NCBI GenBank assembly: GCA_019261985.1
Contig: JAFAQY010000106.1
Coordinates: 22,214 to 86,213, forward strand
Direction of reading: 5' to 3'
Source: Bryobacterales bacterium
Lineage (GTDB): Bacteria > Acidobacteriota > Terriglobia > Bryobacterales > Bryobacteraceae
Length of the DNA stretch: 64,000 bases
The position numbers were made by a program, and so were the translations under genes. Below the pieces are notes generated by a model that worked only from the letters and a program-made list of their open reading frames with translations, ran no database searches and was not told where the DNA came from. Below are positions 1 to 19,502 of the stretch, in pieces. How positions within the stretch are numbered: the first letter of the stretch is position 1; each line of letters opens with the position of its first letter.

Positions 1-921
1 CTTTGCTTGGGGTTTCGCCGCGCCGGGGAACGGCTGGGGCGTAACGTCCGCCGGCGTTAGACCCATGGCCCACTTGATTCCTTCGAGGACCATCTTTTGG
101 AATCGCGGATCGTCCCACGTGGCTTCGTCGTGCCCCCAGCCGATGTTGTACATCCGGCCCTTCCCATACTGGCGCGCCCAAACCACCGGAAAATCTCCAT
201 CGGCGCGGCGCGCGCGGTCTGCCGGGCTGAGCTTATCCGGATCGAGCCGCATAATCACGTGAACGTTATTGCGCGAATACGGCTCTTTGAGAACGGGGTG
301 TTGCTCGGTGAACTGAAATGGCGCGGGACCGAAAGCACTCGCGCCCGGGAATTTCGGGTCCTCTACGATGACTGTAGCGTTGGCATTGAACTCGCTGGAC
401 ATGGTGCCGCCAATAAGTTCGGCCCACTCCGGCCATTGATAGTAACCAACGGTTGCTGCGTGGCCGACAATGATGCCCTTTCCGTCATCGCGAACGAATG
501 AGAGTAAGTCCTCCTTTTGTTTGTCGGTGAAGGCGCCGATGCCGGCGGGCAGCAGGAATACCGCGTCATAGAAATCCAGCGTGCGGGCGTTCACGCTGCG
601 GCCCTGATAGCGCGGGCCCTGGCCGGGGATCTGATCTTTGGTGATCAATTGCGGGTCGGTGCGGATCATCGTCATGTACGCGCCCGATTCGCGTCCAAGC
701 CGCTCGACGGTTGCCAGCGCGTGGGAAATCGAATCGTGGTGAAAGCCTGTCGAAACATCGGCCACGGCCAGCAGCTTCTTTTTGCCAGCCCAGAAATTTG
801 CATCCGCGCCGCCACGTCCTTTGCCTTTCTGATCTTGCGGCGGCTGTGCCCGGAGGCCCCCGGCCACGATGGCAATCGCCAAGGTGGCGGCGGCGATGCT
901 GTATTTCAGTTGCTTACTCAT
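1..921 (-). CDS. ThuA-like secreted protein (trehalose-utilisation / class I glutamine amidotransferase-like fold); the 3' end runs off the window start
   Basis: Absent from the ORF track because there is no stop codon in the window. Reverse-strand translation from the ATG at 921..919 gives MSKQLKYSIAAATLAIAIVAGGLRAQPP (signal peptide), then ...GKGIIVGHAATVGYYQWPEW...DFPVVWARQYGKGRMYNIGWGHDE, which is typical ThuA-domain sequence. The frame stays open to base 1. Confidence 0.7.
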   Translation of the reverse strand, partial: MSKQLKYSIAAATLAIAIVAGGLRAQPPQDQKGKGRGGADANFWAGKKKLLAVADVSTGFHHDSISHALATVERLGRESGAYMTMIRTDPQLITKDQIPGQGPRYQGRSVNARTLDFYDAVFLLPAGIGAFTDKQKEDLLSFVRDDGKGIIVGHAATVGYYQWPEWAELIGGTMSSEFNANATVIVEDPKFPGASAFGPAPFQFTEQHPVLKEPYSRNNVHVIMRLDPDKLSPADRARRADGDFPVVWARQYGKGRMYNIGWGHDEATWDDPRFQKMVLEGIKWAMGLTPADVTPQPFPGAAKPQAK

Positions 922-935
922 TTGAGATTTTTTCC

Positions 936-2006
936 TCAATCCGGAACTCCGTTCACGGTGCGGATAACGCCGCGGTAAAAAGCGAGATCGCGGCGCATCG
1001 CCGCCAATAAATCCGCTTGTGGTATTTCCAGCTTCCACGATCCGAAATTCGTACCGAGGAGATTCACCGGGGGCTTACCCGGAGGATAGACTTCGTACTC
1101 GAAATACAATTCAATGGGCTGCCTGAAGTTGATCTCCTTCAGGTACGCGAAGAATCCTTGGAAATCCACGATACCCTCCCCAGGCCGGCAATATTTCGGC
1201 GACCAGCGTCCCGTGAACGGCGCGGACGGGAAATGCACCCACTGAAAATCCTTCAACGTTACGCTGCCGATCAAGCGGCGAGCAAGATGTGCCGACTCGA
1301 ACCACCCAGGGCCGCCTCGAACCGTCGCGTGTCCGATGTCATAGTTCATCCCAACGAAGCGGGGATCGAAATCGCGAATCATCGTCCACAGGTCCCACAC
1401 GGCGCCGCCGACCAGACCCGGATAGGAATGGGTGTGATAAAGAGCCGTTACCCCGTACTTTTCGTTGAGCCGCGCAAGCCGTCCGATACGCGCCGAGTAT
1501 TCCTCGAGCTGAGTGCGAAAATCGCGCTGGTAATCGTACCGAAAATTTGCGGCACGGTATGACGTCATCCCGACGCCTTTCATCGTCGCGATGATCGCCT
1601 CCGCGCGCGGGGAGTTATCGTCCAGAATTGCGGTCGTCAAGAAAGGAGCGCTCAGGCCTGCTTTTCGAGTGAGCTCTACCACGGTGGGCAGCTTCTTTTC
1701 GACATCCTCGGGAACAATATGCGCGCCGCCACGTACAGCCCATCCAATGCCATCGAAACCGGCTTCTTTGGCGAACGCAATCGCCGGTTCTACATCGGTC
1801 CACTGAAGGTGTCTGGCAAACAGGATCAGAGGAGGATTCCAGTCCAGCCTGTCCGGCGCCGGTACTTGTACCTGTACTTGCTGTTGCGCATCCGCAGCGG
1901 TTGCGGAGGCAAGAGTCCCTAGAGCGACACCCTGGAGCATTGCTCGCCTGGTGGCTTTATCCGCCTGAGCGGAATTGGAAACGCCGGGCGCGGGGTCGTT
2001 GCTCAC
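936..2006 (-). CDS. Tat-exported xylose isomerase-like TIM-barrel protein (sugar phosphate isomerase/epimerase family), paralog 1
   Basis: 356-aa ORF. Twin-arginine signal KATRRAMLQGVALGTLASATAADA. AP_endonuc_2-type motifs ALYHTHSYPG and NYDIGHATVRGG. Lies 15 nt downstream of the TonB receptor and 14 nt upstream of the ThuA-like gene. Confidence 0.8.
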   Translation of the reverse strand: MSNDPAPGVSNSAQADKATRRAMLQGVALGTLASATAADAQQQVQVQVPAPDRLDWNPPLILFARHLQWTDVEPAIAFAKEAGFDGIGWAVRGGAHIVPEDVEKKLPTVVELTRKAGLSAPFLTTAILDDNSPRAEAIIATMKGVGMTSYRAANFRYDYQRDFRTQLEEYSARIGRLARLNEKYGVTALYHTHSYPGLVGGAVWDLWTMIRDFDPRFVGMNYDIGHATVRGGPGWFESAHLARRLIGSVTLKDFQWVHFPSAPFTGRWSPKYCRPGEGIVDFQGFFAYLKEINFRQPIELYFEYEVYPPGKPPVNLLGTNFGSWKLEIPQADLLAAMRRDLAFYRGVIRTVNGVPD

Positions 2007-2021
2007 GTTGGTCCTTTCAGA

Positions 2022-5000
2022 TCAAAACACGATTTTCGCGGCGACCTGCATAATTCGGGGATCCTGAGCGGTCGAGATGATCCCGAAAGTTGTACCGCTG
2101 CTTAGCGACGTCCCCGGATTGTTGAACCGGGCGTGGTTAAACACGTTAAACGCCTCCCATCTGAAATTCAATTTGACGTTTTCGCGAATGACAAAAGATC
2201 GGGATAAGGCGGCATCCAGATTCCAAGCGCCTGGACCCACAAGAAGATTTCGCCCAGCGTTGCCGTAAGTGCCCGGGGCCTGCTTCGCGAACGCCGCAGT
2301 GTTGAACCACTGAGCAATTGTCGGGTTGGGTAGCGCTCCATTGCCGATTACGTTGGGACGATCGAGGCCTATACCGGTCAATGAGATATCTGTCCCGTCC
2401 GTGATGTTCAGGGGCGTGCCGGTGTAGGCGGTAAATATCGGCGATAGTTGCCAACCGCCAGCAATCCGCTGAACCCAGGCTGAGCTGAATTTCGGCGACT
2501 GCGTCACCGCTGAAAGGTTGAATACCTGCCGCCGGTCGAACGAGCAGCTTGCCCATTCCGCTCTCCGGTTGTTTGGATTTTGGTAGTAGTTTGTAATGTC
2601 CTGATTCGCCTCTCCCTGATCGAAACAATGCGACAGAGTGTAATTCGCCAGCACCGAGAAGCTATGGCTGAAGCGATGATTGAGGCTGAGCAGAAGTCCG
2701 TTGTAGCTGGCATTGCCGTTGTCGTCAATCATGATCGTGCTGCCGAAGTATTTTCCTGTACTCGGATTCGCGAGGATGAACACTCGCCGGCTCTCCTGAT
2801 TGCCCAGGGTCGCGCCGGGGCCGTACACGGCAGGATTCAGCTCATGACCGAGCCACTGGTGCGTCGTCTTGTTGCCTAGATACGTGGCGGATACGAGCCA
2901 GTCCGCGCCGAGCTGCTTCTGAAACGATACATTCCACTGCTGGACATAAGTGGCGTGCGCGTGCAGAGGTTCGAATACATAGGTCCCATCCAGCGGGAAC
3001 TGGAAGTTCGGGCCGGGCGTGCCCGAAGGGAATGGATTGCCGCCGGGATAATTCTGCCACGGGCTGCTCAGATTTACATTCGGTAGCGTGATGGTTTCTC
3101 CCCATGGCGGATTCAACGGTACGTGCAGTGTGTTCCATAGATACGCAGAATCCCAGAACATCCCGTAGCCGCCACGCAATGTTTCGGTCCCCTTACCGCG
3201 CGGATCGAGCACAAATCCAAAGCGCGGCGCGATGTCGCCATAGCGCGGGAACGTGTCGGACCGGCCCGGAAATCCAGCATCGCCCGGAAACGTCAGCCCG
3301 GGAGGCGCGAGCTTCAAAACCGTGCTGGTCTGCCCGGCGTAAAATTTCGCGGGGTCAAACTGCGATGCATAGCCGTATAGCTGATGCTGCGGAATAAACG
3401 GATCCCAACGGATGCCGAGATTTAGCTGAAGCCGCTTATTGACCTTCCAATTGTCCTGCGCGTAGAGCGAAGGAGCATTGGCGGCGTCGCGCGCAATCTG
3501 ACCGTTGCCCTGAAGGAACGTATCGACATTGCCGGTGAGGAAATCCGCCAGTGCATTCCCGGTTAACTGGCCGTTGAAAGTGAACCGCGGATTTTGCTGG
3601 AAGGGTCCATCGCCGTTCATCTGGGTATGCACCCAGCTCACTCCAAACGTCAATTGATGCGCGCCATGCGTCATGCCCAATTCGTCCCCCAAGGAAGAGA
3701 TATTCGTATACACCCATCCGGGGATTGAACTGAGAGTAAAATAGCCCGGCACTTGAATTTGACCGCTATAGTTCGGGATCGGCGAGTAGATATTCGAGCC
3801 AAGCTGAGCGATCGTGGGCACTCCGTTAGCTCCTACCCTCACAACGGCGGAGCGGGAGAAACTGGCGCGGAAGGAGTTCACAATAGTGGAGCTGATCAAG
3901 TGAGTGTCTCCCGCGGTGAGCGACTGGACCTGGTCCTGAAGGCCCGGGTTTCCCGCCGTCAGGAGGTTCGCAGTGTTGTAAAACGCATCGAGAGTGTAGT
4001 TGGTGACGAAATAGCGGAAGAAGATGGAGTCTTTCTCCGTGCGCTGCCAGTCCAGACGCCCAGTCCCTTGATACTCGTTGTCGATCTGCGGAATGCCATA
4101 AAGGATGCGCCCGCATGAATCCGCCGATACCGGCAGAAGGGAAAGAAATTTGAGGGCGATGGGATTCAGCATACTCTGTGGGATGACATTGTTCACCGCT
4201 CCGGAAGCGGCGTTCAATGTAACGGGGGTCCTTTGGCAGGGAGGGGACAAGATCGTTTGGAAATTCCCCTGCAGAACAGCAGCGGTTGGGACAAATGCTT
4301 GATTTGTTGCAGGAGCCGTCCTCTCCGTCGTGCCCTGGAATCCGGCGAAGAAGAACAGTTTGTCCTTTTTGATCGGACCGCCAATCACTCCACCGAATTG
4401 ATTGCGTTTCAGGGAATCGCGCGCGGGCGCAAAAAAGTTCCGCGCGTTAAACACGTAATTGCGCAGGAACTCGAAGGCGTCGCCGTGAACCGCGTTAGTT
4501 CCGGATTTTGTGATTACATTCACAGCGCCGCCCGGATGGCTTCCGTAATTGGCCGGCAGTGTGCTCGTCTCCACCTTGAATTCCTGCAAGGCATCGGGGA
4601 ATGGCAGAGGCATGCCGACATTGGTGCGCGGGTCGATATGCGTACTCCCATCGAGGAAATAGTTCGTTTGATTGCCCTGGCCGCCTGCCACCGAGAATGC
4701 GGCTACCGTAGGGTAATTGAGATTCGTTGCCACACCGCCACCGGTATTCACGACGGCAGCTCCCGAGAGCGCGATCAATTGTGCCGCGTTCCGTCCGTTC
4801 AACGGCAGATCTACGACACGCTGCTGATCGATCACCTGGCCGACGCTGGTGTTCTGGGTCTCCACCATGCCGGCATTTGCCCGCACTTCGATCTGTTCGG
4901 TAACCCCGCCGACTTTGAGCGTGACGTTGATCTGCGGATTGGTATTCACCTGGAGCACGATCCCGTTCTGCGTATAAGGAGTGAATCCGTCCTTCGCTAC

Positions 5001-5231
5001 CTGCAACTGGTATGGGCCGGCAACCAGGTTGGTCACGGCATACGAACCATCCGCCGCGGAGTCCAGCGTTCGGGATGCCGAGGTATCGGTATTCGTGATC
5101 GTGACTCGAGCCCCCGCTATGGCTGCGCCGCTCGCGTCCTGAATGATTCCGGAAATCTGTGAAACCGCCGCCACCTGTGCTACCACCGGAACGGCCACGC
5201 AAAGCAAAAGGCCTAGACGCATTTGTCGCAT
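2022..5231 (-). CDS. TonB-dependent receptor with N-terminal carboxypeptidase-regulatory-like domain (1 of 3)
   Basis: 1069-aa ORF with a signal peptide. ISGIIQDASGAAIAGARVTITNTDT...YAVTNLVAGPYQLQV is a CarboxypepD_reg fold, followed by plug-like LPLNGRNAAQL. The long beta-barrel ends in AAKIVF (terminal Phe). Roughly 50% identical over long stretches to the 10991-14269 paralog. Confidence 0.85.
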   Translation of the reverse strand: MRQMRLGLLLCVAVPVVAQVAAVSQISGIIQDASGAAIAGARVTITNTDTSASRTLDSAADGSYAVTNLVAGPYQLQVAKDGFTPYTQNGIVLQVNTNPQINVTLKVGGVTEQIEVRANAGMVETQNTSVGQVIDQQRVVDLPLNGRNAAQLIALSGAAVVNTGGGVATNLNYPTVAAFSVAGGQGNQTNYFLDGSTHIDPRTNVGMPLPFPDALQEFKVETSTLPANYGSHPGGAVNVITKSGTNAVHGDAFEFLRNYVFNARNFFAPARDSLKRNQFGGVIGGPIKKDKLFFFAGFQGTTERTAPATNQAFVPTAAVLQGNFQTILSPPCQRTPVTLNAASGAVNNVIPQSMLNPIALKFLSLLPVSADSCGRILYGIPQIDNEYQGTGRLDWQRTEKDSIFFRYFVTNYTLDAFYNTANLLTAGNPGLQDQVQSLTAGDTHLISSTIVNSFRASFSRSAVVRVGANGVPTIAQLGSNIYSPIPNYSGQIQVPGYFTLSSIPGWVYTNISSLGDELGMTHGAHQLTFGVSWVHTQMNGDGPFQQNPRFTFNGQLTGNALADFLTGNVDTFLQGNGQIARDAANAPSLYAQDNWKVNKRLQLNLGIRWDPFIPQHQLYGYASQFDPAKFYAGQTSTVLKLAPPGLTFPGDAGFPGRSDTFPRYGDIAPRFGFVLDPRGKGTETLRGGYGMFWDSAYLWNTLHVPLNPPWGETITLPNVNLSSPWQNYPGGNPFPSGTPGPNFQFPLDGTYVFEPLHAHATYVQQWNVSFQKQLGADWLVSATYLGNKTTHQWLGHELNPAVYGPGATLGNQESRRVFILANPSTGKYFGSTIMIDDNGNASYNGLLLSLNHRFSHSFSVLANYTLSHCFDQGEANQDITNYYQNPNNRRAEWASCSFDRRQVFNLSAVTQSPKFSSAWVQRIAGGWQLSPIFTAYTGTPLNITDGTDISLTGIGLDRPNVIGNGALPNPTIAQWFNTAAFAKQAPGTYGNAGRNLLVGPGAWNLDAALSRSFVIRENVKLNFRWEAFNVFNHARFNNPGTSLSSGTTFGIISTAQDPRIMQVAAKIVF

Positions 5232-5258
5232 GATTCAAACCCCCGCAGTGTTCGAGCG

Positions 5259-5321
5259 AGTGTAACCCTGTTTGCCCATAAGAACAACAAAGTAACGGTG
5301 CAACACCGTTAAACACGCTCG
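5259..5321 (-). promoter_or_regulatory. Sigma70-like promoter (-35 TTGTTC, 17-nt spacer, -10 TACACT) preceded by a conserved 30-nt palindromic element
   Basis: The gene-sense sequence is CGAGCGTGTTTAACGGTGTTGCACCGTTAC. Its core TAACGGTG-N3-CACCGTTA is a perfect 8-bp inverted repeat, and it ends 60 nt before the receptor ATG. The same element with the same spacing occurs at 14322-14351. Confidence 0.45.
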
Positions 5322-5390: not shown

Positions 5391-7283
5391 ATGAAAACTC
5401 GAGAGGCTGGCTTAATTTTGATCCTGGCGGCTGGGGCCACGGAAGCTCTGGCTCAGACAACCTGGGCAGGATTCGGAGGCGACCCCGGTCATACACGATA
5501 CTCGACACTGAATCAGATCACTCCGGCGAACGTTGCGAAGCTCCGCCAGGCTTGGGCGTACGACCTGGGCAGCATGGGCCGTAAATGGGAAGCCACTCCG
5601 CTGGTCGTGGACGACGTGATGTACCTGACGCTGCCGCAAGGCGCCGACGGTGTGGTTGCGCTGGATCCGGTCACCGGAAAGCAGCTTTGGAAGTACGAAG
5701 CCAAGGACAGCCGCGGACGCTCGAACCGCGCCGTCTCGTACTGGCCCGGTGACGCAAAGACTCCGCCGCGTCTGCTGTTCGCCTCAGGCGACAAGCTGAT
5801 CGCCTTGTCCGCCAAGACTGGACAGCCTGTGAAGGAGTTTGGCGACAATGGTGTGGTCAACCTCCGGATTGGCGTTGCCGACAATTATCCGACCGGAGCC
5901 TACTCGTTCTCATCGCCGCCTGCGATCTACAAAGACTTGGCCATCCTCGGGCCTTCGACCCAGGAGACGGGACGCTATGGTCCTAGCGGAGATCCGCGAG
6001 CGTTTGATATTCGCACCGGCAAAATGATCTGGCGCTTTCACCTTGTTCCACGGCCGGGAGAGCCGAACGAAGGCACGTGGGGACCTGAGGGCTGGCAGGA
6101 GCGTTCCGGTCCAAGCATGTGGGGACTCATCAGCGTTGACACGGAACGCGGAATCGTCTTTCTTCCCGTGGGAAATCCGTCCAGCAGCTTTTATGGCGCG
6201 GACCGGCCGGGCACGAATCTGTATGCGAACTGCGTTCTGGCGCTCGACGCCGCCACGGGCAAGCTCTTATGGTATTTCCAAACCACGCATCATGATCTGG
6301 TCGATGCGGATCTGGCGGCCGCTCCGATTCTTTTCGACATTACCCGCAACGGCCGCAAAATTCCCGCTGTCGCGCAGGTGACGAAGCTGAACATGGTATT
6401 CATCCTCGATCGCCTCACCGGAAAGCCCATCTATCCGGTAGAGGAGCGGCCTGCGCCGAAGAGTACCGTGCCGGGTGAAGTAAGTTGGCCGACCCAGCCC
6501 TATACGGTCAAGCCCGCGCCTCTGGGACGTCTCTCCATTACGCGAGACGAACTGACTACGGTGACGCCCGAATCGCGGCAATTCTGTTTGGAGTGGTGGG
6601 ACAGGGAGCACATGCGTAACGAAGGCGTCTTTTCCAGCTACGGCTCCGAAGGTACGACCGTTATGTTTCCCGGGACCATCGGCGGCGGCAACTGGGGAGG
6701 CATGGCGTTCAATCCCCAGCTGGGCTATTTGTTCGTGAATATCAGTAATCTGGGAACAATCGGCAAACTCGCGCCCGTGCCGCCCAATTCGCGTAGGAGT
6801 GCACCGTCCGGCTTGCCGCCATTACCGGAAGTCGATTATTTAAACGGCCCTGCATATACTCGCTTCCAGGACGAAAATGGACTACCCTGTCAGCAACCGC
6901 CTTGGGGGGAACTGGCGGCGATTAACGTGAACACCGGCGACGTGGCCTGGAAGGTCCCTCTTGGAATTGTCGACTCGTTGGAAGCCAAGGGCATCACCAA
7001 TACCGGCACGCCCAATGTCGGCGGGGCAATCGCGACCTCCACCGGGCTGGTATTTATCGGGGCTACTCGCGATAAGCGGTTTCGGGCCTTTGACGCGAAA
7101 ACCGGGAAGCTGTTGTGGGAAACGAAACTGGAAGCCTCGGCTGCTGCTTCGCCCGTCACCTACCGCGGCAAGGACGGCAAGCAATACGTGGTTATTGCGG
7201 CGGGCGGACCGTCCGATGCCGGCCGCGGCACCGAGTTCGAAGGAAACTTCCCTCAGAAACTGATCGCGTTTTCCCTGCCGTAG
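5391..7283 (+). CDS. Soluble periplasmic PQQ-dependent dehydrogenase (8-bladed quinoprotein, glucose/quinate-dehydrogenase-like), paralog 1
   Basis: 630-aa ORF with a Sec signal peptide. N-terminal quinoprotein signature TWAGFGGDPGHTRYSTLNQITPANVAKLRQAW. Also YFQTTHHDLVDADL and repeated propeller W-motifs. Paralogous to 16649-18526. Confidence 0.85.
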   Translation: MKTREAGLILILAAGATEALAQTTWAGFGGDPGHTRYSTLNQITPANVAKLRQAWAYDLGSMGRKWEATPLVVDDVMYLTLPQGADGVVALDPVTGKQLWKYEAKDSRGRSNRAVSYWPGDAKTPPRLLFASGDKLIALSAKTGQPVKEFGDNGVVNLRIGVADNYPTGAYSFSSPPAIYKDLAILGPSTQETGRYGPSGDPRAFDIRTGKMIWRFHLVPRPGEPNEGTWGPEGWQERSGPSMWGLISVDTERGIVFLPVGNPSSSFYGADRPGTNLYANCVLALDAATGKLLWYFQTTHHDLVDADLAAAPILFDITRNGRKIPAVAQVTKLNMVFILDRLTGKPIYPVEERPAPKSTVPGEVSWPTQPYTVKPAPLGRLSITRDELTTVTPESRQFCLEWWDREHMRNEGVFSSYGSEGTTVMFPGTIGGGNWGGMAFNPQLGYLFVNISNLGTIGKLAPVPPNSRRSAPSGLPPLPEVDYLNGPAYTRFQDENGLPCQQPPWGELAAINVNTGDVAWKVPLGIVDSLEAKGITNTGTPNVGGAIATSTGLVFIGATRDKRFRAFDAKTGKLLWETKLEASAAASPVTYRGKDGKQYVVIAAGGPSDAGRGTEFEGNFPQKLIAFSLP

Positions 7284-10991: not shown

Positions 10992-13900
10992 TAAAACACG
11001 TATTTCAGCGCGCCCTGAAGAATCCGCGGGTCGCGCGCGCTAAGAATCTGCCCGTAGGTGGGACTGTTCAGCGTCGCGTCGGGATTACCAAACCGCGCAT
11101 GGTTGAACACGTTGAAAGCCTCGGCGCGGAAGTCAATGCGGTTACGCTCCGTGATGCGAAAACTGCGCGATAGCGCTACGTCAACATTCCACGCTCCCGG
11201 CCCGGTGATCACGCCCACCCCCGAATTGCCCCAGCTTCCTGTCGGGGCGGGGACGAATGCGGACGTGTTGAACCATTTGGCGATGGACGGATTTGCCAGA
11301 TCCGGACCGGCGACAGCATTCGGGCGCGTGCCGCTGCCTGTGAGCGATGTATCGAAACCGGTTGCCGGCGTGACATGCGTTCCTGTCGCGGCAGTGAAGA
11401 TGGTCGATTCCTGCCAGTCGCCGAGTAGCCGCCGCGTCCAGCCGGCGGAGAATCTCGGCGTTCGAACCACACCTGTAAGATTGAAAACCTGACGGCGATC
11501 GGAAAGGCAATTGCCGTACTCGGCCTCGCGGTTGTTGGGGTCCTGAGGACTGGCTCCGCCATTGAGCGCAACTTCGTTTTCGGTCAGGCAGTGTGACCAC
11601 GTATAATTCGCCAGAACCGTAAAGCTGTGCGTGAAACGATGCTGAGCGGAGAGCAGCATCGCGTTGTAGGTCGCGATCGCGCCGTCGCCAAAAGGAGTAA
11701 CCGCGGAATAAGCAGCCGCCTTGGCGGGGTTCGACAGGTACAGGACTCGCCGGAAATTCGTGTTCGATTGATTCGAGCATGGTCCCGCGGCAGTTAGCCC
11801 ATATTGGCCGTCGGCGCAATTGCCTGGGATATAAATTGCAGGATTCAGCGGCTCGCCCATTTCGAGATGCAGAGTTCGATTCCCCAGATAAGAAGCTGAG
11901 AGCAGCCAGTCGCCGGCGACCTGCTTTTGCAGCGCGACATTCCACTGTTCCATGTAGGTTGGCTTCGGGTTCAATTTGAAGAAACCCAGTCCGCCCCCAA
12001 ACTGTGGAAAGGGCACATTGGCCGGCAGCGGACTGGGGAGCGGGAACGGGTTCGTTCCGTAAGTCGAGCCGGCGTAAGGATCCGAGAACCCGCCGGCCGG
12101 ATTCGGGATACTTACCGGATACGCAAAGGGAGCATGGGTTCCGTTTTGCAGAAATAAGGGCACGGCGCTATAAAAAATTCCGTAGCCTGCGCGGATCGTT
12201 TCGAGACCTTTCCCCCGAGGGTCGTAGACCACACCTATGCGCGGAGCGAATTCGGCCCAGCGGCTGTTGAAGTAGTGGTTTGCAGGCATGCCCGGATCGC
12301 CGACGAACAATGTTCCCGCCGGCGCGTTGGTGAATACCCGGCTATGAATGCCGGCGCTATACCATCCGGGGTCGAAGATGCTGACTTGCGGAACCGCCTT
12401 CCATGGCGAGACGTAAGGGTCCCATCGCAAGCCTGCGCTCACATTGAAACGCGAGCTGAGACGGATGTTGTCCTGCACGAAAAGCGAGGGGAACGTCAGC
12501 CGCTCATCGCCGATCTGGCCGTTGTTCTGCGAGAATGACGACGGTTTGCCGAGCAGGAAGTCGGCCAGCGAATTGCCCGTGTTCTGCCCGTTGAACGTGA
12601 AATTTCCGTTGCGTGAAAAATTGCCGAAGGAATTCAGCCGTGAATTCTGCCCAGTGGCCCCGAAGGCGATTTGATGCGCGCCGCGGATCCAATTGATCTG
12701 CTCGGAGAGCTGGTAATTGGTGGAAATCCACGGCCCGGGCGAGCAGTTCTGGCACACCGGCGTGAAATAGCTGGTGATGTTGATGAAGGCGTAGCCCGGC
12801 ACTCCCTGGGTAACATTCGCGCCCAGTTGTGTCGGCGTCGGGACGCCGGGCGGCGTGTACCGGATGACGGAGGTCCGGCTGAAGGACGCCCTGAAGGAGC
12901 TGATCATCCGCGGATTGATGACGAAATTCTCGCCGGCCACGGCTGAATTGACGCGATCCGCCAATCCGACGCTTGCGTCGGTGGACATGGTCAGCAGGTT
13001 GTCTGCGAAGTACGGCGGGTGCTGGTAATCGGTGATGAAATAACGCGCAAACACGGAATGTTTGTCGTTGACTTGCCAATCCGACCGGACGACGTACTGG
13101 TTTTCATGATCGCTGCTCGGGATTCCGTATGTGAGCTTCCCGCAGGGGTTCGACGATACAGGAATCAGTTTCAAGAGATTCAGCGCAACGGGATTGAGAA
13201 GGCTGGCCGGGACTTTGTTTCCGACGAAAGGAGCCTTGAGCGTGACATTTCCGCAGGAAGCGATTCCAGTAAAATCGCCCTGGAGAGCGGCGGCCGTGGC
13301 AACGAAGTTTATGTTTGCGGCGGGTGCGACTTTTTCGAAAGTGCCTTGATATCCCCCAAAGAAGAACAGCTTGTTCTTGATAATCGGTCCGCCTATCGTA
13401 CCGCCGAACTGATTGCGTTTGAGCGAATCGCGTGCCGGAGCAAAGAAGTTTCGCGCGTTGAGCGCGTAATTGCGGATGAACTCGAATGCGTCTCCGTGGA
13501 ATTGATTGCCGCCGCTTTTTGTGATCACGTTGATCACTCCGCCCGGCTGCGAACCGTAATTGGCCGGCAATGAGCTGGTTTCGACCTTAAACTCCTGAAG
13601 GGCGTCGGGAAACGGCATGGGAAGTCCGATATTGGAAATCGGGTCCATATGGTTGCCGCCGTCGAGCACGAACAGCGTCTGTCCGCCTTGGCCGCCCGCC
13701 ACCGAGAACGCTGAAGACGTTGGGTAGTTCTTGTTCGAGATGAGCGATTGACCCGCGCTGGTCGGCACGAAATCGTTTGCCGCCCCGGAGAGAGTTACCA
13801 GTTGTGTGACCTGGCGGCCATTCAGCGGAAGCTCGAGCACACGTTCCTGATCGATTACCTGCCCTATGCCGGGATTGTGAGTCTCCACTTGAGCCGCATT

Positions 13901-14269
13901 GGCCACGACTTCGATTTGCTGAGTAACCCCGCCCACGTTCAGTGTGATGTTGATCTGGGGATTCGTATTCACTTCCAGTACGATGCCGGACTGCATATAC
14001 GGCGCGAAGCCCTCTTTAGAACCTCGAAGCGCGTACGGCCCGGGAGGCAGGTTGGACAGGAGATATGAGCCATCCCGCCCGCTCTTGACGGTTCTGGCGA
14101 TGGCGGTGTTGGCGTTGGTGATCGTGATTTCGGCGTCAGGAATAACGGCGCCAGTCGCATCTTGGACGGTTCCGGAGACTTGGGAAACCTGGCTCGTCTG
14201 CCCCCAGGCGCTGCCGGCCCAAAGCAAGACAGCAATGAAGAGGGCAGCCGCAACACACGAACTCTTCAT
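10991..14269 (-). CDS. TonB-dependent receptor with carboxypeptidase-regulatory-like domain (2 of 3)
   Basis: 1092-aa ORF. Signal peptide, VSGTVQDATGAVIPDAEITITNANT, plug motif LPLNGRQVTQL, C-terminal GALKYVF. Confidence 0.85.
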   Translation of the reverse strand: MKSSCVAAALFIAVLLWAGSAWGQTSQVSQVSGTVQDATGAVIPDAEITITNANTAIARTVKSGRDGSYLLSNLPPGPYALRGSKEGFAPYMQSGIVLEVNTNPQINITLNVGGVTQQIEVVANAAQVETHNPGIGQVIDQERVLELPLNGRQVTQLVTLSGAANDFVPTSAGQSLISNKNYPTSSAFSVAGGQGGQTLFVLDGGNHMDPISNIGLPMPFPDALQEFKVETSSLPANYGSQPGGVINVITKSGGNQFHGDAFEFIRNYALNARNFFAPARDSLKRNQFGGTIGGPIIKNKLFFFGGYQGTFEKVAPAANINFVATAAALQGDFTGIASCGNVTLKAPFVGNKVPASLLNPVALNLLKLIPVSSNPCGKLTYGIPSSDHENQYVVRSDWQVNDKHSVFARYFITDYQHPPYFADNLLTMSTDASVGLADRVNSAVAGENFVINPRMISSFRASFSRTSVIRYTPPGVPTPTQLGANVTQGVPGYAFINITSYFTPVCQNCSPGPWISTNYQLSEQINWIRGAHQIAFGATGQNSRLNSFGNFSRNGNFTFNGQNTGNSLADFLLGKPSSFSQNNGQIGDERLTFPSLFVQDNIRLSSRFNVSAGLRWDPYVSPWKAVPQVSIFDPGWYSAGIHSRVFTNAPAGTLFVGDPGMPANHYFNSRWAEFAPRIGVVYDPRGKGLETIRAGYGIFYSAVPLFLQNGTHAPFAYPVSIPNPAGGFSDPYAGSTYGTNPFPLPSPLPANVPFPQFGGGLGFFKLNPKPTYMEQWNVALQKQVAGDWLLSASYLGNRTLHLEMGEPLNPAIYIPGNCADGQYGLTAAGPCSNQSNTNFRRVLYLSNPAKAAAYSAVTPFGDGAIATYNAMLLSAQHRFTHSFTVLANYTWSHCLTENEVALNGGASPQDPNNREAEYGNCLSDRRQVFNLTGVVRTPRFSAGWTRRLLGDWQESTIFTAATGTHVTPATGFDTSLTGSGTRPNAVAGPDLANPSIAKWFNTSAFVPAPTGSWGNSGVGVITGPGAWNVDVALSRSFRITERNRIDFRAEAFNVFNHARFGNPDATLNSPTYGQILSARDPRILQGALKYVF

Positions 14270-14321
14270 GGAGTTACTCCCTTCTGATCTGCGGTTACGC
14301 TAACACGGCCGGGCGCATTTT

Positions 14322-14395
14322 CGAGCGTGTTTAACCGTGCTGAACCGTTACATGGAGCGCTCTCCATTGCTCGTGCGTTTTGTTCGGGTTAGAAT
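14322..14395 (+). promoter_or_regulatory. Conserved 30-nt palindromic element followed by a sigma70-like promoter (-35 TTGCTC at 14367, 17-nt spacer, -10 TAGAAT at 14390)
   Basis: CGAGCGTGTTTAACCGTGCTGAACCGTTAC ends 59 nt before the MBL-hydrolase ATG. It matches the element at 5292-5321 at 26 of 30 positions, in the same gene-sense orientation and with the same spacing. Confidence 0.45.
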
Positions 14396-14410
14396 CGCTC
14401 AGATCGAACT

Positions 14411-15499
14411 ATGAGAATCATTGGCGCAGTAAGCATTGCCTTGGCCGTGATTTCGCAGGCGCAGGATTCCTCTAGCGCGCCCCCGGGAGCCGGCCGGGGT
14501 GGGCGGGGCCCTTCGCCGAACCTCCCGACGAAAGCACAATGGGATTCAAACGCGAAGACTCAAGAGTACGTGGCCAAGGCCAAAGCGATCGCGGGAGACG
14601 ATCCTGATCTCCAATTCGACTTTGGGATCTTTTGTCAGCCTTCCGGGGGCTCGACGAACGAGGACCGGGCCAAGATTGGCGTTCCCAACAGTCTGCCGCA
14701 CCTCACTGCTTATCCGACGCCGAATCCGAAAGCTTCGTTAGGAATCCAGCGCCTCTTCGACAACTTCTACTGGATCGGTGACACCGGTGTTGGAGCGTGG
14801 CTGATCACGTCAAACGACGGCTACATTTTGTTCGACTCTCTGAATAACGAAGATGAAGCGCGCGACGTGCTGGTTCCGAGTATGAAAAAGGCTGGTCTTG
14901 ATCCGGCCAAGATCAAGTACATGGTGTTCGGGCATTACCACTTGGACCACACCGGGGGCGGCCTCTACATCCAATCCAATTACCACCCGAAAGTCGTCAT
15001 GGGCCGCGACGATTGGGAGCTATATTTCAAAACCATGCAGTCGGGATCGGGGCAAGCGGCGCGGCTCGCGAACAAGACGCCGATGAAGCGGGACATCGAT
15101 GCAACAGATGGAATGAAGATCACCGCCGGCGACGTCACTGCGACCATCTACGAGATGACAGGCCACACACCAGGCTCGATCGGGATGATTGTTCCCGTAA
15201 AATACCAGGGCCGGGCGCACCCGATTCTCTTGGTGACTGCTGCTACAGACGTTCACAATCGCGAATCCTTTATCGGCGGCTATGAGCACATCTGGGATAT
15301 CGGCATCCAGAACAAAGTGGAATCGGTAATGCAGGTTCATCCGAATACCAACATGAATCTACTTGCCCGGACGAAATACGTCAGCGAAAACTATCCCCCG
15401 GCGAAAAATCCGCTGCTCTATGGCGCCGATCGGACGAAGAAGTACATCGAGATAATGCGGGCGTGCACACTGGGCCGCATGGAGGCTCTGGGATGGTAA
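14411..15499 (+). CDS. Secreted MBL-fold metallo-hydrolase
   Basis: 362-aa ORF with a signal peptide. Metallo-beta-lactamase motif GHYHLDHTGG, plus a downstream HTPGS. Confidence 0.8.
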   Translation: MRIIGAVSIALAVISQAQDSSSAPPGAGRGGRGPSPNLPTKAQWDSNAKTQEYVAKAKAIAGDDPDLQFDFGIFCQPSGGSTNEDRAKIGVPNSLPHLTAYPTPNPKASLGIQRLFDNFYWIGDTGVGAWLITSNDGYILFDSLNNEDEARDVLVPSMKKAGLDPAKIKYMVFGHYHLDHTGGGLYIQSNYHPKVVMGRDDWELYFKTMQSGSGQAARLANKTPMKRDIDATDGMKITAGDVTATIYEMTGHTPGSIGMIVPVKYQGRAHPILLVTAATDVHNRESFIGGYEHIWDIGIQNKVESVMQVHPNTNMNLLARTKYVSENYPPAKNPLLYGADRTKKYIEIMRACTLGRMEALGW

Positions 15500-16641
15500 T
15501 GCGCATGCGCAGGCGCGAGCTTCTCAAATCGGGCGCAGCCGTGTTGCTGGCAGGATGGGCGCGCCCCGCGTTTACTCAGGCAAAATCCTCGGGAAAATTC
15601 TCTCTCGATGTCTACTCGCGCAGCCTGCAATGGCTCCGAACGCCCGCGGAGGTGGCCAAGGCGGTAACCGAAATCGGCCTGAATAGCGTGGATCTAACGG
15701 TTATGCCTTATCCGGGTCACGTTGATCCCGCCAAGGTGAAAACGGATCTGCCGAGGTTCGTAAAAGACCTCGGCGACGGCGGCATCACGGTATCGGCGAT
15801 TACGTGTCCAATAACGGATGCGGATTCGTCCGACGCGGAAGCTATCATTGGGACCGCCTCATCAGCCGGGATTCGATATTACAGTTGGGGTGGATTTCGC
15901 TATGACGATAAGAAGCCCTACCAAGTGCAGCTCGACGCACTGAAACCGCGTGTGGAGAGGTTAGCGCGGCTAAATGAGAAGCACAATATCAAGGCTCTGT
16001 ATCAGCCGCGTGCCGGGGCGATGAATATCGGTACGGCGTTTTTCGATTTGTTAGACGTGCTGAAGGAATTCGACCCGCGATTCGTCGCTTTCCGGTACGA
16101 TACGGGGAGTCTCGTGCAAACGACTCCGGACCTACAGGCTCTCCAATTGCGCATGGGCGGCCGTTATATCGGCGGTATCGCGCTAAACGATGCCGCGGTG
16201 AAGCTTGACCTGCCGGTATGGCATCAGGGCGCTTACCAGGGAACGCCCGAGCAACAGATCGGCGCGTCCAGCGGCGGCGACAACACGGGCAAGGACGGCG
16301 GGAATCCGCTGGCGCTCGGAGGCGGAGGCCGGCCGCTTCCTTATCATGTTCATCCCGTGCCCGTCGGGACCGGCATGATCGATTTGACGCTGATCGGCAA
16401 GACGCTGAAGGAAATCGGCTTCGAAGGACCGGCCGAATGTCAGGCAGAGTGGCCCCTCGGCGGCGCGGAGATCGGAAACGACAAGATCACGTTGCCGCGC
16501 CAGACAGTGTTGGGCCAAATCAAACACAATCGCCTAATGGTGGAACAGGCATTCGCGCCGGCATGGAATATCAACATAGCCCAGCCGCCGTTTATGCAGC
16601 GCGGCGCCAAAACCGCATCCGGGCCGGATCCCGAGCAGTGA
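15493..16641 (+). CDS. Tat-exported xylose isomerase-like TIM-barrel protein, paralog 3
   Basis: The ORF track starts at 15463. The likely start is the ATG at 15493 or 15499, overlapping the MBL stop (ATGGTAATG). MVMRMRRRELLKSGAAVLLAGWARPAFTQA is a twin-arginine signal. The TIM-barrel body carries a Gly-rich insert. Confidence 0.8.
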   Translation: MVMRMRRRELLKSGAAVLLAGWARPAFTQAKSSGKFSLDVYSRSLQWLRTPAEVAKAVTEIGLNSVDLTVMPYPGHVDPAKVKTDLPRFVKDLGDGGITVSAITCPITDADSSDAEAIIGTASSAGIRYYSWGGFRYDDKKPYQVQLDALKPRVERLARLNEKHNIKALYQPRAGAMNIGTAFFDLLDVLKEFDPRFVAFRYDTGSLVQTTPDLQALQLRMGGRYIGGIALNDAAVKLDLPVWHQGAYQGTPEQQIGASSGGDNTGKDGGNPLALGGGGRPLPYHVHPVPVGTGMIDLTLIGKTLKEIGFEGPAECQAEWPLGGAEIGNDKITLPRQTVLGQIKHNRLMVEQAFAPAWNINIAQPPFMQRGAKTASGPDPEQ

Positions 16642-16648
16642 GGAATCG

Positions 16649-18526
16649 ATGACTAAGTCTGTATTTTCGCTCCTGACAATCGTGTTAGCCGCGCCGGTAT
16701 TTTCAGCGGAGGGAGATTGGTACACCGTCGGAGGCGATTTCGGCCACACGAAATATTCATCGCTCAAGCAGATTACGACCGCGAACGTTTCGCATCTGGC
16801 GCCGGCATGGAGCTTCGACGCGGGCGGGGGCGAGGTTACTCCGATCGTCATCGATGGTGTGATGTATTACCCCGCCGGAAGCAAGATCGTTGCGCTTGAG
16901 GCACACACGGGCAAGGTGCTGTGGCAGACCGATATGAGCAACTTGATCCCGGCTACGCCCGAAATGCTGGTGAATCCCGCGCGCGCCGCGGGCCTTCCCG
17001 CGGGACGAGGCGCGCAGGCTTCGAACAACGCATTCCTGCGGCTGGGTAATAGCGCAAAATATGGGGTCTCCATGTGGACCGACGGCGGCGCGACTCCGCC
17101 GCGCATTGTGGTGGCAACCACCGGCGGCTATCTGATCCAGCTTGATGCCAAGACGGGCGCGCTCTACAAGGATTTCGGGCAGCGCGGCGCACTCGATCTC
17201 AGGATCAACGCCATGGAGAAATTCTCATCGAGCGACTACACGCCTGGGATGCTTCCCACGATTTACAAGAATCTGGCCATCATCGCTCCGCGCACTGGCG
17301 AGCAGGGCCGTTACGGTACGCCCGGCGATGCGCGAGCTTTCGATCTCGGCACGGGAAAAGAGGTCTGGCGCTTTCACGTTGTGCCGCATCCGGGAGAGCC
17401 GAATTTCGGCACGTGGGGCCTCGACGGATGGCAGGACCGCCGCGGCCCCGGAAGTTGGGTCCCTATGACCGTGGACTTCGCAAGCGGCACGATTTTCATG
17501 GCGACGGGCAATGCGACGGATCAAGATTACGGCGCGCCCCGCCCCGGCGACAATCTGTATTCGAGCAGCCTGGTGGCTATCGACGCCGCAACCGGCAAAT
17601 TGCGCTGGTACTTTCAAACCACGCATCACGACATCTACGATTGGGACCTCAATTCCCCGCCGGTTCTCGCAGACATCACCGCCAACGATGGAAAGAAAGT
17701 CGCGGCGGTATTGCAGAACACCAAGCAAGGGTATCTGTTCGTGCTGGATCGCGTCACCGGCAAGCCGATCCTTCCGATTGAGGAGAGGCCGGTTCCTCCC
17801 AGCGACGCGCCGGGTGAAGTCACCTCGCCAACCGAACCCGTCCCGTTGAAACCGCCTCCGTTAGGACGTGTGAGTCTGAGCCGCGACGAAGTCGCAAACC
17901 TTTCGCCGGAGAGCCACAAATTCTGCCTGGACATTTACGACAAAGTTCTTCAGGCAGGCGAGGGTACGCCGTATTCGATGGTTCCAACGCTGGTGTTTCC
18001 TAGCTCCACGGGCGGCGGCACATTCGCCGGAGCTACCTATGATCCGAATTTGAACTACATCTTCGTGAACGACAAGGAAGTGGGCACCATTGCCATGCTC
18101 ACTCCGCAGCTTTCTTCGAACACCTTCGAATCGCTGGCAAAATCGAAACTCCCGTTCGTCGATCGGAACGGATATCCGTGCTCGACGCCTCCTTGGGGAG
18201 AACTGATGGCCGTGAATGCCGCAACGGGCGACATCGTCTGGCGTCAACCGCTGGGCGAGTACAAAGAACTCACCGCCAGGGGCATCCCGAAAACAGGCAC
18301 GGAGAATTCGGGCGGGTCCATCGCCACGGCGGGCGGGCTGCTTTTTATAGCGGCGTCGCAAGATAAGATGTTCCGCGCGTTCGAGTCGCGCACGGGGAAG
18401 GAACTGTGGAGCGCGGACCTGCCTGCGAATGGGAACGCAACTCCTTCGACGTTTCTCGGCAAGGATGGCAAACAATATGTCGCGATCTGTACCAGCCGGG
18501 GAGTGGCGGCCTTCCGGCTACCGTAG
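16649..18526 (+). CDS. Soluble periplasmic PQQ-dependent dehydrogenase, paralog 2
   Basis: 625-aa ORF. GAGGAA ribosome-binding site, signal peptide, DWYTVGGDFGHTKYSSLKQITTANVSHLAPAW, YFQTTHHDIYDWDL. Confidence 0.85.
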   Translation: MTKSVFSLLTIVLAAPVFSAEGDWYTVGGDFGHTKYSSLKQITTANVSHLAPAWSFDAGGGEVTPIVIDGVMYYPAGSKIVALEAHTGKVLWQTDMSNLIPATPEMLVNPARAAGLPAGRGAQASNNAFLRLGNSAKYGVSMWTDGGATPPRIVVATTGGYLIQLDAKTGALYKDFGQRGALDLRINAMEKFSSSDYTPGMLPTIYKNLAIIAPRTGEQGRYGTPGDARAFDLGTGKEVWRFHVVPHPGEPNFGTWGLDGWQDRRGPGSWVPMTVDFASGTIFMATGNATDQDYGAPRPGDNLYSSSLVAIDAATGKLRWYFQTTHHDIYDWDLNSPPVLADITANDGKKVAAVLQNTKQGYLFVLDRVTGKPILPIEERPVPPSDAPGEVTSPTEPVPLKPPPLGRVSLSRDEVANLSPESHKFCLDIYDKVLQAGEGTPYSMVPTLVFPSSTGGGTFAGATYDPNLNYIFVNDKEVGTIAMLTPQLSSNTFESLAKSKLPFVDRNGYPCSTPPWGELMAVNAATGDIVWRQPLGEYKELTARGIPKTGTENSGGSIATAGGLLFIAASQDKMFRAFESRTGKELWSADLPANGNATPSTFLGKDGKQYVAICTSRGVAAFRLP

Positions 18527-19502
18527 TTTGACACGCCGCGCTGCGCTGCGCGTGGGCGCCGGTCTTCTCGCGGCGGCTCGGATGCGGGCTGCCGGTAAGC
18601 GAATTCCGCTAGGCGGGAATGTTATCCTTCCCGGCGCCACGGCCGTCTCAACTCTGGACGGACAGATTGGATACCGTGAGATTGACGACCCGGTTGTTCT
18701 CGCGCAAGAGCACAAGCGGCTCGGCTACACGGCTGCCTTCTGTCCCGAGGCGCGTCCGGGCGACACGGCAAGAGTGAATGCGATCCGCAAAGCTTTCGCG
18801 GACGTAGACGTGCTGATCGCGGAGGTCGGCGCATGGCGCAACATGATGACGCCTGATCCTGGCGCCAAGAAAGCGAATCTCGAATACGTAATGCAGCGGC
18901 TGGCTCTGGCCGACGAGCTGGGCGTGAAATGCTGCGTGGACATCGCTGGTTCATTCGATGGCAACACCTTGTCCGGGCCCCATCCCAAGAACCTTTCCAA
19001 AGAGTTCTTCGATGGCACCGTGGAAAACTGCCGGAAGATTCTGGACACTGTAAGACCCAAAGTTGCCAAATTCTCGATCGAGATGAAAGCCTGGGATATC
19101 CCTGACGGGCCGGATTCTTATCTGGAGCTCATCCGCGCCATTGACCGGACAACGTTCGGCGTACATATCGACATCTGCAACATCATTAGTTCGCCGATCC
19201 GGTACTACAACAATACCGCGCTCATTCATGAAACCTTCCAGAAACTTGGCAGGTGGGTGTTGTCCTGCCACGCGAAGGATCTTCGTTGGGTTCCACAGGT
19301 CAACGTAAATTTCGAAGAGGTCCCGCCGGGTGACGGCGGCATCCCGGGGCAGGGCGGCGGAGTGGATTACCATGCCTACTTGACTGAGGTGGCCAAGCTC
19401 GGCGTTCCACTGATGCTGGAACACTTCAACACGAACGAAGAGTTTTTGAGAGGTGCACGATATATCCGCAGCGTGGCAGGGAAACTAGGCCTCTCTATCT
19501 AA
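18477..19502 (+). CDS. Tat-exported xylose isomerase-like TIM-barrel protein, paralog 4
   Basis: The ORF track starts at 18429. The ATG at 18477 has an AAGGA sequence 11 nt upstream. An alternative TTG at 18528 lies right after the PQQ gene stop. Twin-arginine signal SLTRRAALRVGAGLLAAARMRAAG. TIM-barrel body with CHAKDL and LMLEH. Confidence 0.7.
   Translation: MSRSVPAGEWRPSGYRSLTRRAALRVGAGLLAAARMRAAGKRIPLGGNVILPGATAVSTLDGQIGYREIDDPVVLAQEHKRLGYTAAFCPEARPGDTARVNAIRKAFADVDVLIAEVGAWRNMMTPDPGAKKANLEYVMQRLALADELGVKCCVDIAGSFDGNTLSGPHPKNLSKEFFDGTVENCRKILDTVRPKVAKFSIEMKAWDIPDGPDSYLELIRAIDRTTFGVHIDICNIISSPIRYYNNTALIHETFQKLGRWVLSCHAKDLRWVPQVNVNFEEVPPGDGGIPGQGGGVDYHAYLTEVAKLGVPLMLEHFNTNEEFLRGARYIRSVAGKLGLSI

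Follow-up and report, generated by a model that had tools for sequence, protein, structure and literature searches.

An operator-linked gene island of a Bryobacterales bacterium and a possible PQQ-driven periplasmic route of oxidation and elimination

Acidobacteria rank among the most abundant bacteria in soil, and little is known about the carbon sources they use. The locus analyzed here raises the question of which compounds one of them takes apart outside the cytoplasm, and by what chemistry. The window, a stretch of 64,000 nucleotides from the draft genome of a Bryobacterales bacterium (6.5 Mb, 98.8% complete), starts at position 22,214 of contig JAFAQY010000106.1 (C81:22214). It opens with two soluble dehydrogenases of the pyrroloquinoline quinone (PQQ) type, four exported xylose-isomerase-like triosephosphate isomerase (TIM) barrels and two TonB-type receptors, for which an initial annotation had proposed a periplasmic route that oxidizes glycosides and then cleaves them. 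Only in 2021-2024 did work on gut bacteria describe how sugar linkages can be cut by oxidation followed by elimination. The answer that we favour, at about even confidence and from sequence analysis, is that the genes belong to a single-regulon, periplasmic catabolic island that oxidizes and then eliminates, a PQQ-driven variant of the known route with an additional, probable quinate-type arm. Glycosides of plant or microbial origin, processed through 3-keto intermediates, are its likeliest substrates, with PQQ enzymes taking the place of dehydrogenases of the Gfo/Idh/MocA or flavin adenine dinucleotide (FAD) type.

Genes were called from open reading frames and from Pfam and NCBIfam scans of the window proteins, and every gene listed by the initial annotation for positions 1 to 19,502 was recovered. 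As a boundary of the module, however, the window did not hold: tblastn searches for PQQ paralogues returned two further copies immediately upstream of its start, and the upstream stretch (L009) revealed that the cluster runs about 20 kb further. The whole island covers about 40 kb, of which the genes at positions 1 to 19,502 of the window form the right-hand half. It encodes four PQQ dehydrogenases devoid of a membrane anchor (PQQ1, PQQ2, PQQA and PQQB), three TonB-type receptors (TBDR0, TBDR1 and TBDR2), three IolE-like TIM barrels with twin-arginine translocation (Tat) signals (TIM1-3), one epimerase-like TIM barrel (TIM4), two ThuA proteins (104 and 128 bits), a DUF1080 protein, an exported vicinal oxygen chelate (VOC) protein and a type II dehydroquinase. 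The upstream 20 kb contains, in order, genes for a signal-peptide ThuA, the dehydroquinase, TBDR0, PQQA, an acetolactate-synthase-like thiamine pyrophosphate (TPP) enzyme, an aldehyde dehydrogenase (ALDH), a CitE-like acyl-coenzyme A (CoA) lyase, a family III CoA-transferase, the VOC protein with its two domains, the DUF1080 protein and PQQB. All proposed periplasmic proteins carry predicted Sec or Tat signals; the TPP, ALDH, CoA-transferase and CitE proteins carry none. All genomic copies of the TIM1-3 family and of TIM4 lie within the island, and of the genome's four ThuA-like sequences two are located there.

The strongest support for an oxidise-then-cleave route comes from a minus-strand operon that begins in the window and reads TBDR1-TIM1-ThuA-PQQB-DUF1080-VOC, with intergenic gaps of 5-38 nt, because its TIM1-ThuA-PQQB-DUF1080 segment contains all parts of the known pathway except the oxidant. 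The DUF1080 gene, the basis of this argument, lies outside the window at L009:17091-17894 (minus strand). It begins 5 nt past PQQB, is the sole copy in the genome and encodes a protein with a signal peptide that scores 98 bits against PF06439 (cut-off 26.8). In Bacteroides thetaiotaomicron and Alistipes, an exported Gfo/Idh/MocA enzyme oxidizes C3 of the glycoside. Elimination of the aglycone is then the task of an IolE-like TIM barrel for beta-anomers and of a DUF1080 protein for alpha-anomers; the DUF1080 protein (BT2157/AL2, a 3-keto-glucoside lyase/hydratase) then hydrates the resulting glucal (PMC8121099; 10.1101/2024.03.25.586180). In Caulobacter, DUF1080 is partnered by the FAD enzyme LacABC (PMC9007349). 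Rhizobial ThuA acts together with ThuB; the thuEFGKAB genes of Sinorhizobium and Agrobacterium are cited in PMC8121099 for disaccharide 3-dehydrogenation.

The gut loci BT2156-BT2160 and AL1-AL5 resemble the island in that the oxidoreductase, the IolE-like TIM barrel and the DUF1080 protein are encoded together, all with signal peptides. Their oxidant is a Tat-exported Gfo/Idh/MocA enzyme with tightly bound, internally recycled nicotinamide adenine dinucleotide, whereas that of the island would be a respiration-linked PQQ quinoprotein without a partner reductase. The island TIM barrels bear Tat signals and lack the histidine ligand at strand beta-7, whereas AL1 uses Sec. The island further adds TonB receptors, ThuA, VOC, a metallo-beta-lactamase-fold (MBL) protein, a dehydroquinase and a CoA-dependent cytoplasmic branch. 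As in the ThuAB system, a ThuA gene stands beside a dehydrogenase gene, at three places across the island and a related cluster (G153, see below); unlike that system, the island has no ThuB (Gfo/Idh/MocA), its ThuA proteins bear signal peptides and lie next to PQQ enzymes, and uptake would proceed through TonB receptors instead of an ABC transporter. In the limited set of literature searched, no paper joined PQQ enzymes with 3-keto-glycosides or DUF1080.

A common operator unites the two halves of the island. The palindromic pattern TAACSGTR-N3-5-HACSGTTA occurs at four sites in the 6.5-Mb genome, all of them inside the island and all in divergent intergenic regions (dehydroquinase/TBDR0, ALDH/CitE, TBDR1/PQQ1 and TBDR2/MBL); none of 100 shuffles contained a match. 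The spacer is 3 nt at three sites and 5 nt at the dehydroquinase/TBDR0 site. The presence of one operator at all four divergent promoters ties the periplasmic and cytoplasmic genes to one putative regulator, and the periplasmic genes together with the four cytoplasmic genes (TPP, ALDH, CoA-transferase and CitE) accordingly form a predicted single regulon of eight transcription units. No regulator gene was found in the island, and LacI and GntR queries from related clusters gave no match on contig C81. The window half of the island is organized as follows.

1 to 921, minus strand: ThuA-like protein with Sec signal (PF06283, 104 bits; N-terminus MSKQLKYSIAAATLAIAIVAGG); stop codon at C81:22211, 1-3 nt ahead of the window start
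936 to 2006, minus strand: TIM1, IolE-like barrel of the xylose-isomerase fold (PF01261) with Tat signal TRRAML and an H-x-H motif; motifs YHTH, YDIGH, LKD and FEY; GTG start preceded by the ribosome-binding site AAAGGA
2022 to 5231, minus strand: TBDR1, TonB-type outer-membrane receptor (PF25183, 705 bits; CarboxypepD_reg and OMP_b-brl_4 domains in Pfam)
5293 to 5311, no strand: palindromic operator TAACGGTG-N3-CACCGTTA between the TBDR1 operon and PQQ1
5391 to 7283, plus strand: PQQ1, soluble anchor-less quinoprotein of the glucose/quinate/shikimate dehydrogenase family (PF01011, 645 bits; TIGR03074, 474 bits)
7291 to 8241, minus strand: TIM2, IolE-like barrel with Tat signal MNRRELLK (PF01261 and a weak TAT_signal match)
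8332 to 9636, plus strand: importer of the major facilitator superfamily (MFS), anion:cation symporter (ACS, galactonate-type) family (TIGR00893, 212 bits, versus 51 bits for the aromatic-acid family)
9600 to 10991, minus strand: exported BNR/sialidase-like propeller, translationally coupled to TBDR2 (weak BNR and BNR_2 matches; its closest Atlas clusters are named BNR glycosyl hydrolase or sialidase family)
10991 to 14269, minus strand: TBDR2, second TonB-type receptor, 50% identical to TBDR1
14332 to 14350, no strand: palindromic operator TAACCGTG-N3-AACCGTTA between the TBDR2 operon and the MBL-TIM3-PQQ2-TIM4 operon
14411 to 15499, plus strand: exported, B3-like MBL-fold hydrolase, possibly a lactonase or esterase (PF00753; NF033105, 92 bits versus a cut-off of 240)
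15493 to 16641, plus strand: TIM3, paralogue with Tat signal RRRELLK and substitutions at three near-invariant residues
16649 to 18526, plus strand: PQQ2, second soluble quinoprotein, 47% identical to PQQ1
18528 to 19502, plus strand: TIM4, epimerase-like member of a distinct xylose-isomerase-fold family (PF01261) with Tat signal MTRRAAL

The island gene set recurs in nearly the same order, at 63-81% identity, in a genome of another family of the same class (G153). There the order is TBDR-PQQA-ThuA-PQQ2-TIM2-TIM3-MBL-PQQB-TBDR1-TBDR-TIM1-ThuA-PQQB-VOC-DUF1080, with VOC and DUF1080 swapped relative to the island operon and an MBL hydrolase 76% identical to that of the island. The G153 cluster additionally contains an MFS transporter, a feruloyl-type esterase, a 72%-identical TPP enzyme and a GntR regulator. 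The island may have been transferred from one family to another.

To place the TIM1-3 family in a wider context, its neighbours were clustered without prior labels at 80 loci from species-representative genomes, mainly of Terriglobia, plus a Sphingomonas, Bacteroidota and a Phycisphaerae genome. The commonest neighbour was a Tat-exported Gfo/Idh/MocA oxidoreductase, found at 27 of the 80 loci. A PQQ dehydrogenase occurred at 17, immediately adjacent to the TIM gene and on the same strand in 10 of these; at some other PQQ loci the enzyme is fused to a cytochrome c domain. Both oxidoreductases were present at five loci. Further neighbours were ACS-type MFS transporters (17 loci), TonB-type receptors (16), short-chain dehydrogenases/reductases (15), two groups of Tat-signal enolase-superfamily proteins (13 and 10) and GH29 alpha-L-fucosidases (9). 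An exported oxidoreductase is thus the regular companion of the TIM1-3 family, a role in which PQQ enzymes and the Gfo type alternate. This alternation suggests that the PQQ enzymes are a stand-in for the oxidant of the 3-keto-glycoside route.

Five loci in metagenome-assembled genomes of Acidobacteriaceae (L101, L103, L112, L125 and L131) share the arrangement TonB receptor, GH29 fucosidase or fucosidases, GntR/FCD regulator, ACS-type MFS transporter, cytochrome-c-fused PQQ dehydrogenase and TIM barrel; at L101, two exported ThuA genes follow the TIM gene. The arrangement appears to be a fucoside-related counterpart of the island's module. The enolase-superfamily (MR_MLE) proteins with twin-arginine signals directly adjoin the TIM family at 23 loci (L043, L044, L077, L090, L124 and others), and exported members are unusual for this normally cytoplasmic superfamily.

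Can the four quinoproteins act on ring hydroxyls? Their best family profile is TIGR03074, with 393-505 bits over profile positions of about 150-783 (all under the curated cut-off of 832), compared with 220-305 bits for the alcohol-dehydrogenase family. They share 31-36% identity with Escherichia coli Gcd across the whole catalytic domain, and Asp466, Lys493 and Trp404 of Gcd are invariant; His262 and His775 are not kept. The eight-bladed propeller aligns with that of Gcd over its full length, and the five-helix N-terminal membrane anchor of the membrane-bound PQQ dehydrogenases (Gcd, Acinetobacter QuiA) is replaced by a Sec signal in the island proteins. In the alignment to Gcd, which begins at about residue 165 of the latter, all four lack the N-terminal multi-helix anchor and instead start with a signal peptide of 20-30 residues. 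The vicinal Cys-Cys pair of methanol and ethanol dehydrogenases (TIGR03075) and a haem motif are absent from all four, and alcohol dehydrogenases in the PDB align only to their N-terminal half. Judged by sequence, the island PQQ enzymes are therefore of the sugar/cyclitol rather than the alcohol type, in line with the initial annotation, which had cast them as sugar oxidases. An Asp-x-Asp motif was considered as a lanthanide signature and set aside as uninformative in this family, since E. coli Gcd has it too. Genome-wide there are about 40 PQQ-propeller paralogues; many of these stand alone or have no partner besides a TonB receptor. In the neighbourhoods of eleven other paralogues, TonB receptors were the sole recurrent neighbours. 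Several paralogues outside the island adjoin such receptors, on contigs C67, C14, C125 and C26.

The twin-arginine motifs TRRAML, NRRELL, RRRELL and TRRAAL stand at credible starts of TIM1 to TIM4. For TIM4 the probable start is the TTG at 18528, one base past the PQQ2 stop codon, which yields MTRRAAL. An N-terminal Arg-Arg pair is at least 90% conserved among the homologues compared (44 for TIM1-3, 30 for TIM4), which rules out that the motifs are artefacts of wrong start codons; all four barrels are predicted Tat substrates, as first proposed. The four barrels had also been described as paralogues. This applies to TIM1-3 only (28-42% identity), TIM4 having no detectable BLAST similarity to them. 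In the host's own family, TIM homologues are at most about 49-55% identical, compared with 63-81% for the island proteins in G153 (contig C18). Terriglobus roseus DSM 18391 has a TIM homologue of 55% identity. A 236-kb metagenomic contig carries homologues of both TIM2 and TIM4 that are 85% identical.

The conserved residues of the TIM1-3 family are H39, R66, H71, H166, D197, H200, K227, D228 and E275 (TIM2 numbering). As in IolE (YHHH), a histidine replaces the first metal-binding glutamate of most relatives. In AL1/BT1, His178, Asp211 and His237 are the metal ligands, His180 binds the substrate and Glu272 abstracts the C2 proton (10.1101/2024.03.25.586180). TIM1 has its H-x-H motif, an aspartate and a glutamate at the positions of a metal ligand, the substrate-binding histidine, a metal ligand and the catalytic glutamate. 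The AL1-type ligand set is incomplete in TIM1-3, with three of the four positions fitting, and these proteins may work like AL1 though they fall outside its subfamily. TIM3 carries H166Q, H200S and K227N, alone among the 44 members, and retains D197, D228 and E275; this paralogue may have lost its activity or taken on another function. TIM4 has the invariant tetrad E185, D215, H248 and E298, the canonical Glu-Asp-His-Glu set that is also seen in epimerases; its profile matched only 3tva among PDB sequences (E 1.6e-4) and gave no sequence match to AsbF. Profile searches of PDB sequences yielded no close relative for either TIM family.

The second arm of the island is marked by the type II dehydroquinase at L009:4877-5446 (C81:7176-7745), which has the signal-peptide-like N-terminus MTRRVVLWLALACFAPALHS and scores 164 bits against NF003807 (cut-off 130) and 152 bits, slightly under the cut-off of 170, against TIGR01088. 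It is the only type II enzyme of the genome, a type I enzyme being encoded elsewhere. Among 201 genomes sampled from the class, a type II dehydroquinase was found in just 5; in one of these (G135) it lies directly ahead of a PQQA homologue. This rarity and the linkage to PQQA point to quinate-like substrates for the dehydroquinase arm, and the TBDR0-PQQA arm with dehydroquinase and ThuA probably handles quinate-like cyclitol acids. More generally, the dehydroquinase, the anion-type MFS transporter and the CoA-dependent genes point to substrates that are at least partly quinate-like or acidic rather than neutral glycans. Catabolism of quinate and shikimate by the qui/qsu systems employs a PQQ quinate dehydrogenase, a dehydroquinase and a dehydroshikimate dehydratase. 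The island is similar in pairing a quinoprotein of the same family with a dehydroquinase, near barrels of the xylose-isomerase fold. It differs in that the quinoprotein is soluble, the dehydroquinase possibly exported and the barrels probably not of the AsbF/QuiC type. No genes of the beta-ketoadipate pathway were found near the island.

Taken together, these features can be arranged into a putative pathway. Substrates would enter through the three TonB-type receptors, and the four soluble quinoproteins would convert a ring hydroxyl into a ketone, with the respiratory chain receiving the electrons. Exported carbonyl-dependent enzymes, namely TIM1-3, the DUF1080 protein, TIM4 and the dehydroquinase, with ThuA, VOC and MBL as possible helpers, would then act on the keto intermediate, cleaving or rearranging it through beta-elimination, hydration or epimerization. 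Because a quinoprotein removes electrons for good, the products would stay oxidized. They might be oxidized further by other paralogues, the MBL or VOC protein might open rings or hydrolyse lactones, and keto-acids might be imported; such steps would account for the transporter and the cytoplasmic genes. The galactonate-type MFS transporter would import the acidic products, which the co-regulated TPP enzyme, ALDH, CoA-transferase and CitE-like lyase would break down in the cytoplasm; these four enzymes have no counterpart in the known 3-keto-glycoside pathway. A narrower formulation, which we hold tentatively and think somewhat more likely wrong than right, is that the anchor-less quinoproteins are respiration-coupled glycoside or cyclitol 3-dehydrogenases feeding exported beta-eliminases. 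This would amount to a PQQ-dependent, non-hydrolytic cleavage in PQQ-scavenging Acidobacteria, with an undescribed end route dependent on TPP and CoA.

Several observations weigh against this proposal. The initial annotation had noted that the window contains no pqq genes, which is correct, and the search it called for across the genome likewise found no PQQ synthesis genes: PqqC and the TENA/PqqC family gave no match in the genome, the control genomes responding, and matches to PqqB and PqqE were far under the curated cut-offs. Scavenging of PQQ is known in other bacteria (PMC12124388). NCBIfam contains a family for "empty" quinoprotein paralogues in Acidobacteria, TIGR04528 (acido-empty-quinoprotein), which also matches the island PQQ proteins with 189-278 bits, weaker than TIGR03074. 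The island encodes neither a cytochrome c or other electron acceptor, nor a classical glycoside hydrolase, nor a Gfo/Idh/MocA reductase that could handle a 3-keto-sugar; a tblastn search of the genome with a Tat-Gfo query gave a single match of 24% identity, outside the island on contig C95. At the beta-7 position, which was equated with His237 of AL1 through motif spacing and not through direct alignment, TIM1-3 have serine or alanine where IolE, 3tva, 3p6l and AsbF have histidine. By sequence TIM1-3 are closer to IolE and to uncharacterized structures than to either AL1 or the 2-hydroxy-3-keto-glucal hydratase AtHYD. A further point is that the MFS transporter belongs to the anion type. Finally, the signal peptide of the dehydroquinase hinges on the choice of start codon, an internal TTG being possible, and the closest relatives (in G196, G159 and G135) have none; this weakens the dehydroquinase as evidence for a periplasmic quinate pathway.

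Fold comparison did not decide the matter. The AlphaFold2 model of TIM2 (758 homologues; predicted local distance difference test score of 92) and the model of TIM4 (88) are both clear xylose-isomerase-fold barrels. The initial annotation had called for a structural comparison with eliminases, C-deglycosylases and epimerases; carried out with Foldseek and VIA-align, it did not single out the eliminases. The TIM2 list is flat across the superfamily, with Z-scores of 27.2-23.1 for SCO6571, BDI_1903, Art22, AtHYD (25.8), UlaE, ketose epimerases, YcjR (23.7), IolE (23.2) and AL1 (23.1). That of TIM4 is also flat (24.6-21.7), with ketose 3-epimerases on top at 24.6. Between them, the matches of the two models also include mannonate dehydratase and endonuclease IV. 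AsbF is absent among the 50 fold matches listed for either model, an absence that carries no weight. The lists favour neither lyases nor epimerases nor dehydratases, which also speaks against our proposal. On balance, the periplasmic oxidise-then-cleave route is partly supported: it stands on the sugar-type PQQ enzymes, the Tat signals, the Gfo/PQQ alternation and the DUF1080 operon, and is weakened by the flat fold lists, the missing beta-7 histidine, the lack of a glycoside hydrolase and the signs of quinate-like or acidic substrates.

Three other explanations have to be considered. The island might degrade carbocyclic polyols (quinate, shikimate, chlorogenate-derived quinate or inositols) instead of glycosides: soluble PQQ quinate or inositol dehydrogenases would produce keto-cyclitols, the dehydroquinase and TIM barrels would dehydrate them in the manner of inosose dehydratase or dehydroshikimate dehydratase, VOC or the TPP enzyme would open the ring and the MFS transporter would import the acids. 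TIGR03074 is indeed a glucose/quinate/shikimate family, the accessory dehydroquinase is tied to PQQA here and in G135, and the best characterized relatives of the TIM1-3 profile are IolE (E 7e-9) and AsbF (E 6e-5). The VOC protein weakly resembles extradiol dioxygenases. Acetolactate-synthase-like TPP enzymes such as IolD and cyclohexane-1,2-dione hydrolase cleave cyclic 1,2-diones; carboxylated cyclitols would suit the anion-type transporter, and the G153 cluster includes the feruloyl-type esterase. Yet TIM1-3 have a histidine in place of the metal ligand Glu134 of AsbF, the transporter scores poorly against the aromatic-acid family, and no iolB, iolC, iolJ or protocatechuate-pathway genes were seen in the island. 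Known quinate and inositol routes give DUF1080 and ThuA no role, and elsewhere the neighbours of the TIM family are of carbohydrate type (Gfo/Idh/MocA, GH29, LacI or GntR-FCD regulators, enolase superfamily). We consider this explanation unlikely. Slightly less probable still is the classical chemistry of membrane glucose dehydrogenase, in which free aldoses in the periplasm would be oxidized at C1 to lactones, the MBL protein would act as lactonase, the MFS transporter would import aldonic or keto-aldonic acids for cytoplasmic degradation and the TIM barrels would isomerize or epimerize the keto-acids. The identity to Gcd with its retained catalytic residues, the exported MBL hydrolase in the PQQ2 operon, the ACS family of the transporter and an aldehyde dehydrogenase nearest to lactaldehyde dehydrogenase all fit, as do the enolase-superfamily proteins (acid-sugar-dehydratase type), short-chain dehydrogenases/reductases, GntR-FCD regulators and GH29 fucosidases beside the TIM genes of relatives. 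The enolase-superfamily partners, however, are absent from the island. C1 oxidation would give no ketone next to the reacting carbon, which TIM-barrel chemistry needs, and it offers no role for DUF1080, ThuA, the dehydroquinase or the four exported TIM barrels.

At the other extreme, the genes might share no pathway at all and represent a pile-up of independently acting paralogues, with some or all propellers being cofactor-less "empty" quinoproteins. The abundance of solitary or merely receptor-paired propellers in the genome, the lack of PQQ synthesis genes and the TIGR04528 matches are consistent with such a view. It is very improbable in the light of four copies of one operator confined to the island, of a gene set and most of a gene order conserved in another family (G153), and of the gathering in one place of all TIM1-3 and TIM4 copies, the only DUF1080 gene and half of the ThuA-like sequences. 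Moreover, TIM and PQQ genes lie side by side in several lineages, among them a Sphingomonas, and the TIGR03074 scores are much above those of TIGR04528.

If the proposed PQQ-driven route of oxidation and elimination is correct, the breakdown of glycans or plant acids would be coupled directly to respiration. Some of the dozens of acidobacterial quinoprotein paralogues that lack an explanation would gain a function, as would three large families without annotation, the Tat-exported TIM barrels, the exported ThuA proteins and the DUF1080 proteins. Growth on these substrates would then depend on PQQ supplied by neighbours, which could matter for cultivation. With its four operator sites, the island is a well-defined putative regulon and offers a place to test these ideas.

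Both flanks of the island contain additional genes. At the upstream edge, L009:855-1937 encodes a 360-residue protein with a Lys/Ala-rich, histone-H1-like N-terminus. Directly past the island, a minus-strand cluster for a quinohaemoprotein amine dehydrogenase occupies positions 20205-26253 of the window. It comprises a beta-propeller subunit-like gene (20205-21374), a radical-SAM maturase (21691-23154) and an alpha subunit with two haem motifs (23127-24917), followed by a 375-residue exported protein with one CxxCH motif (25126-26253).

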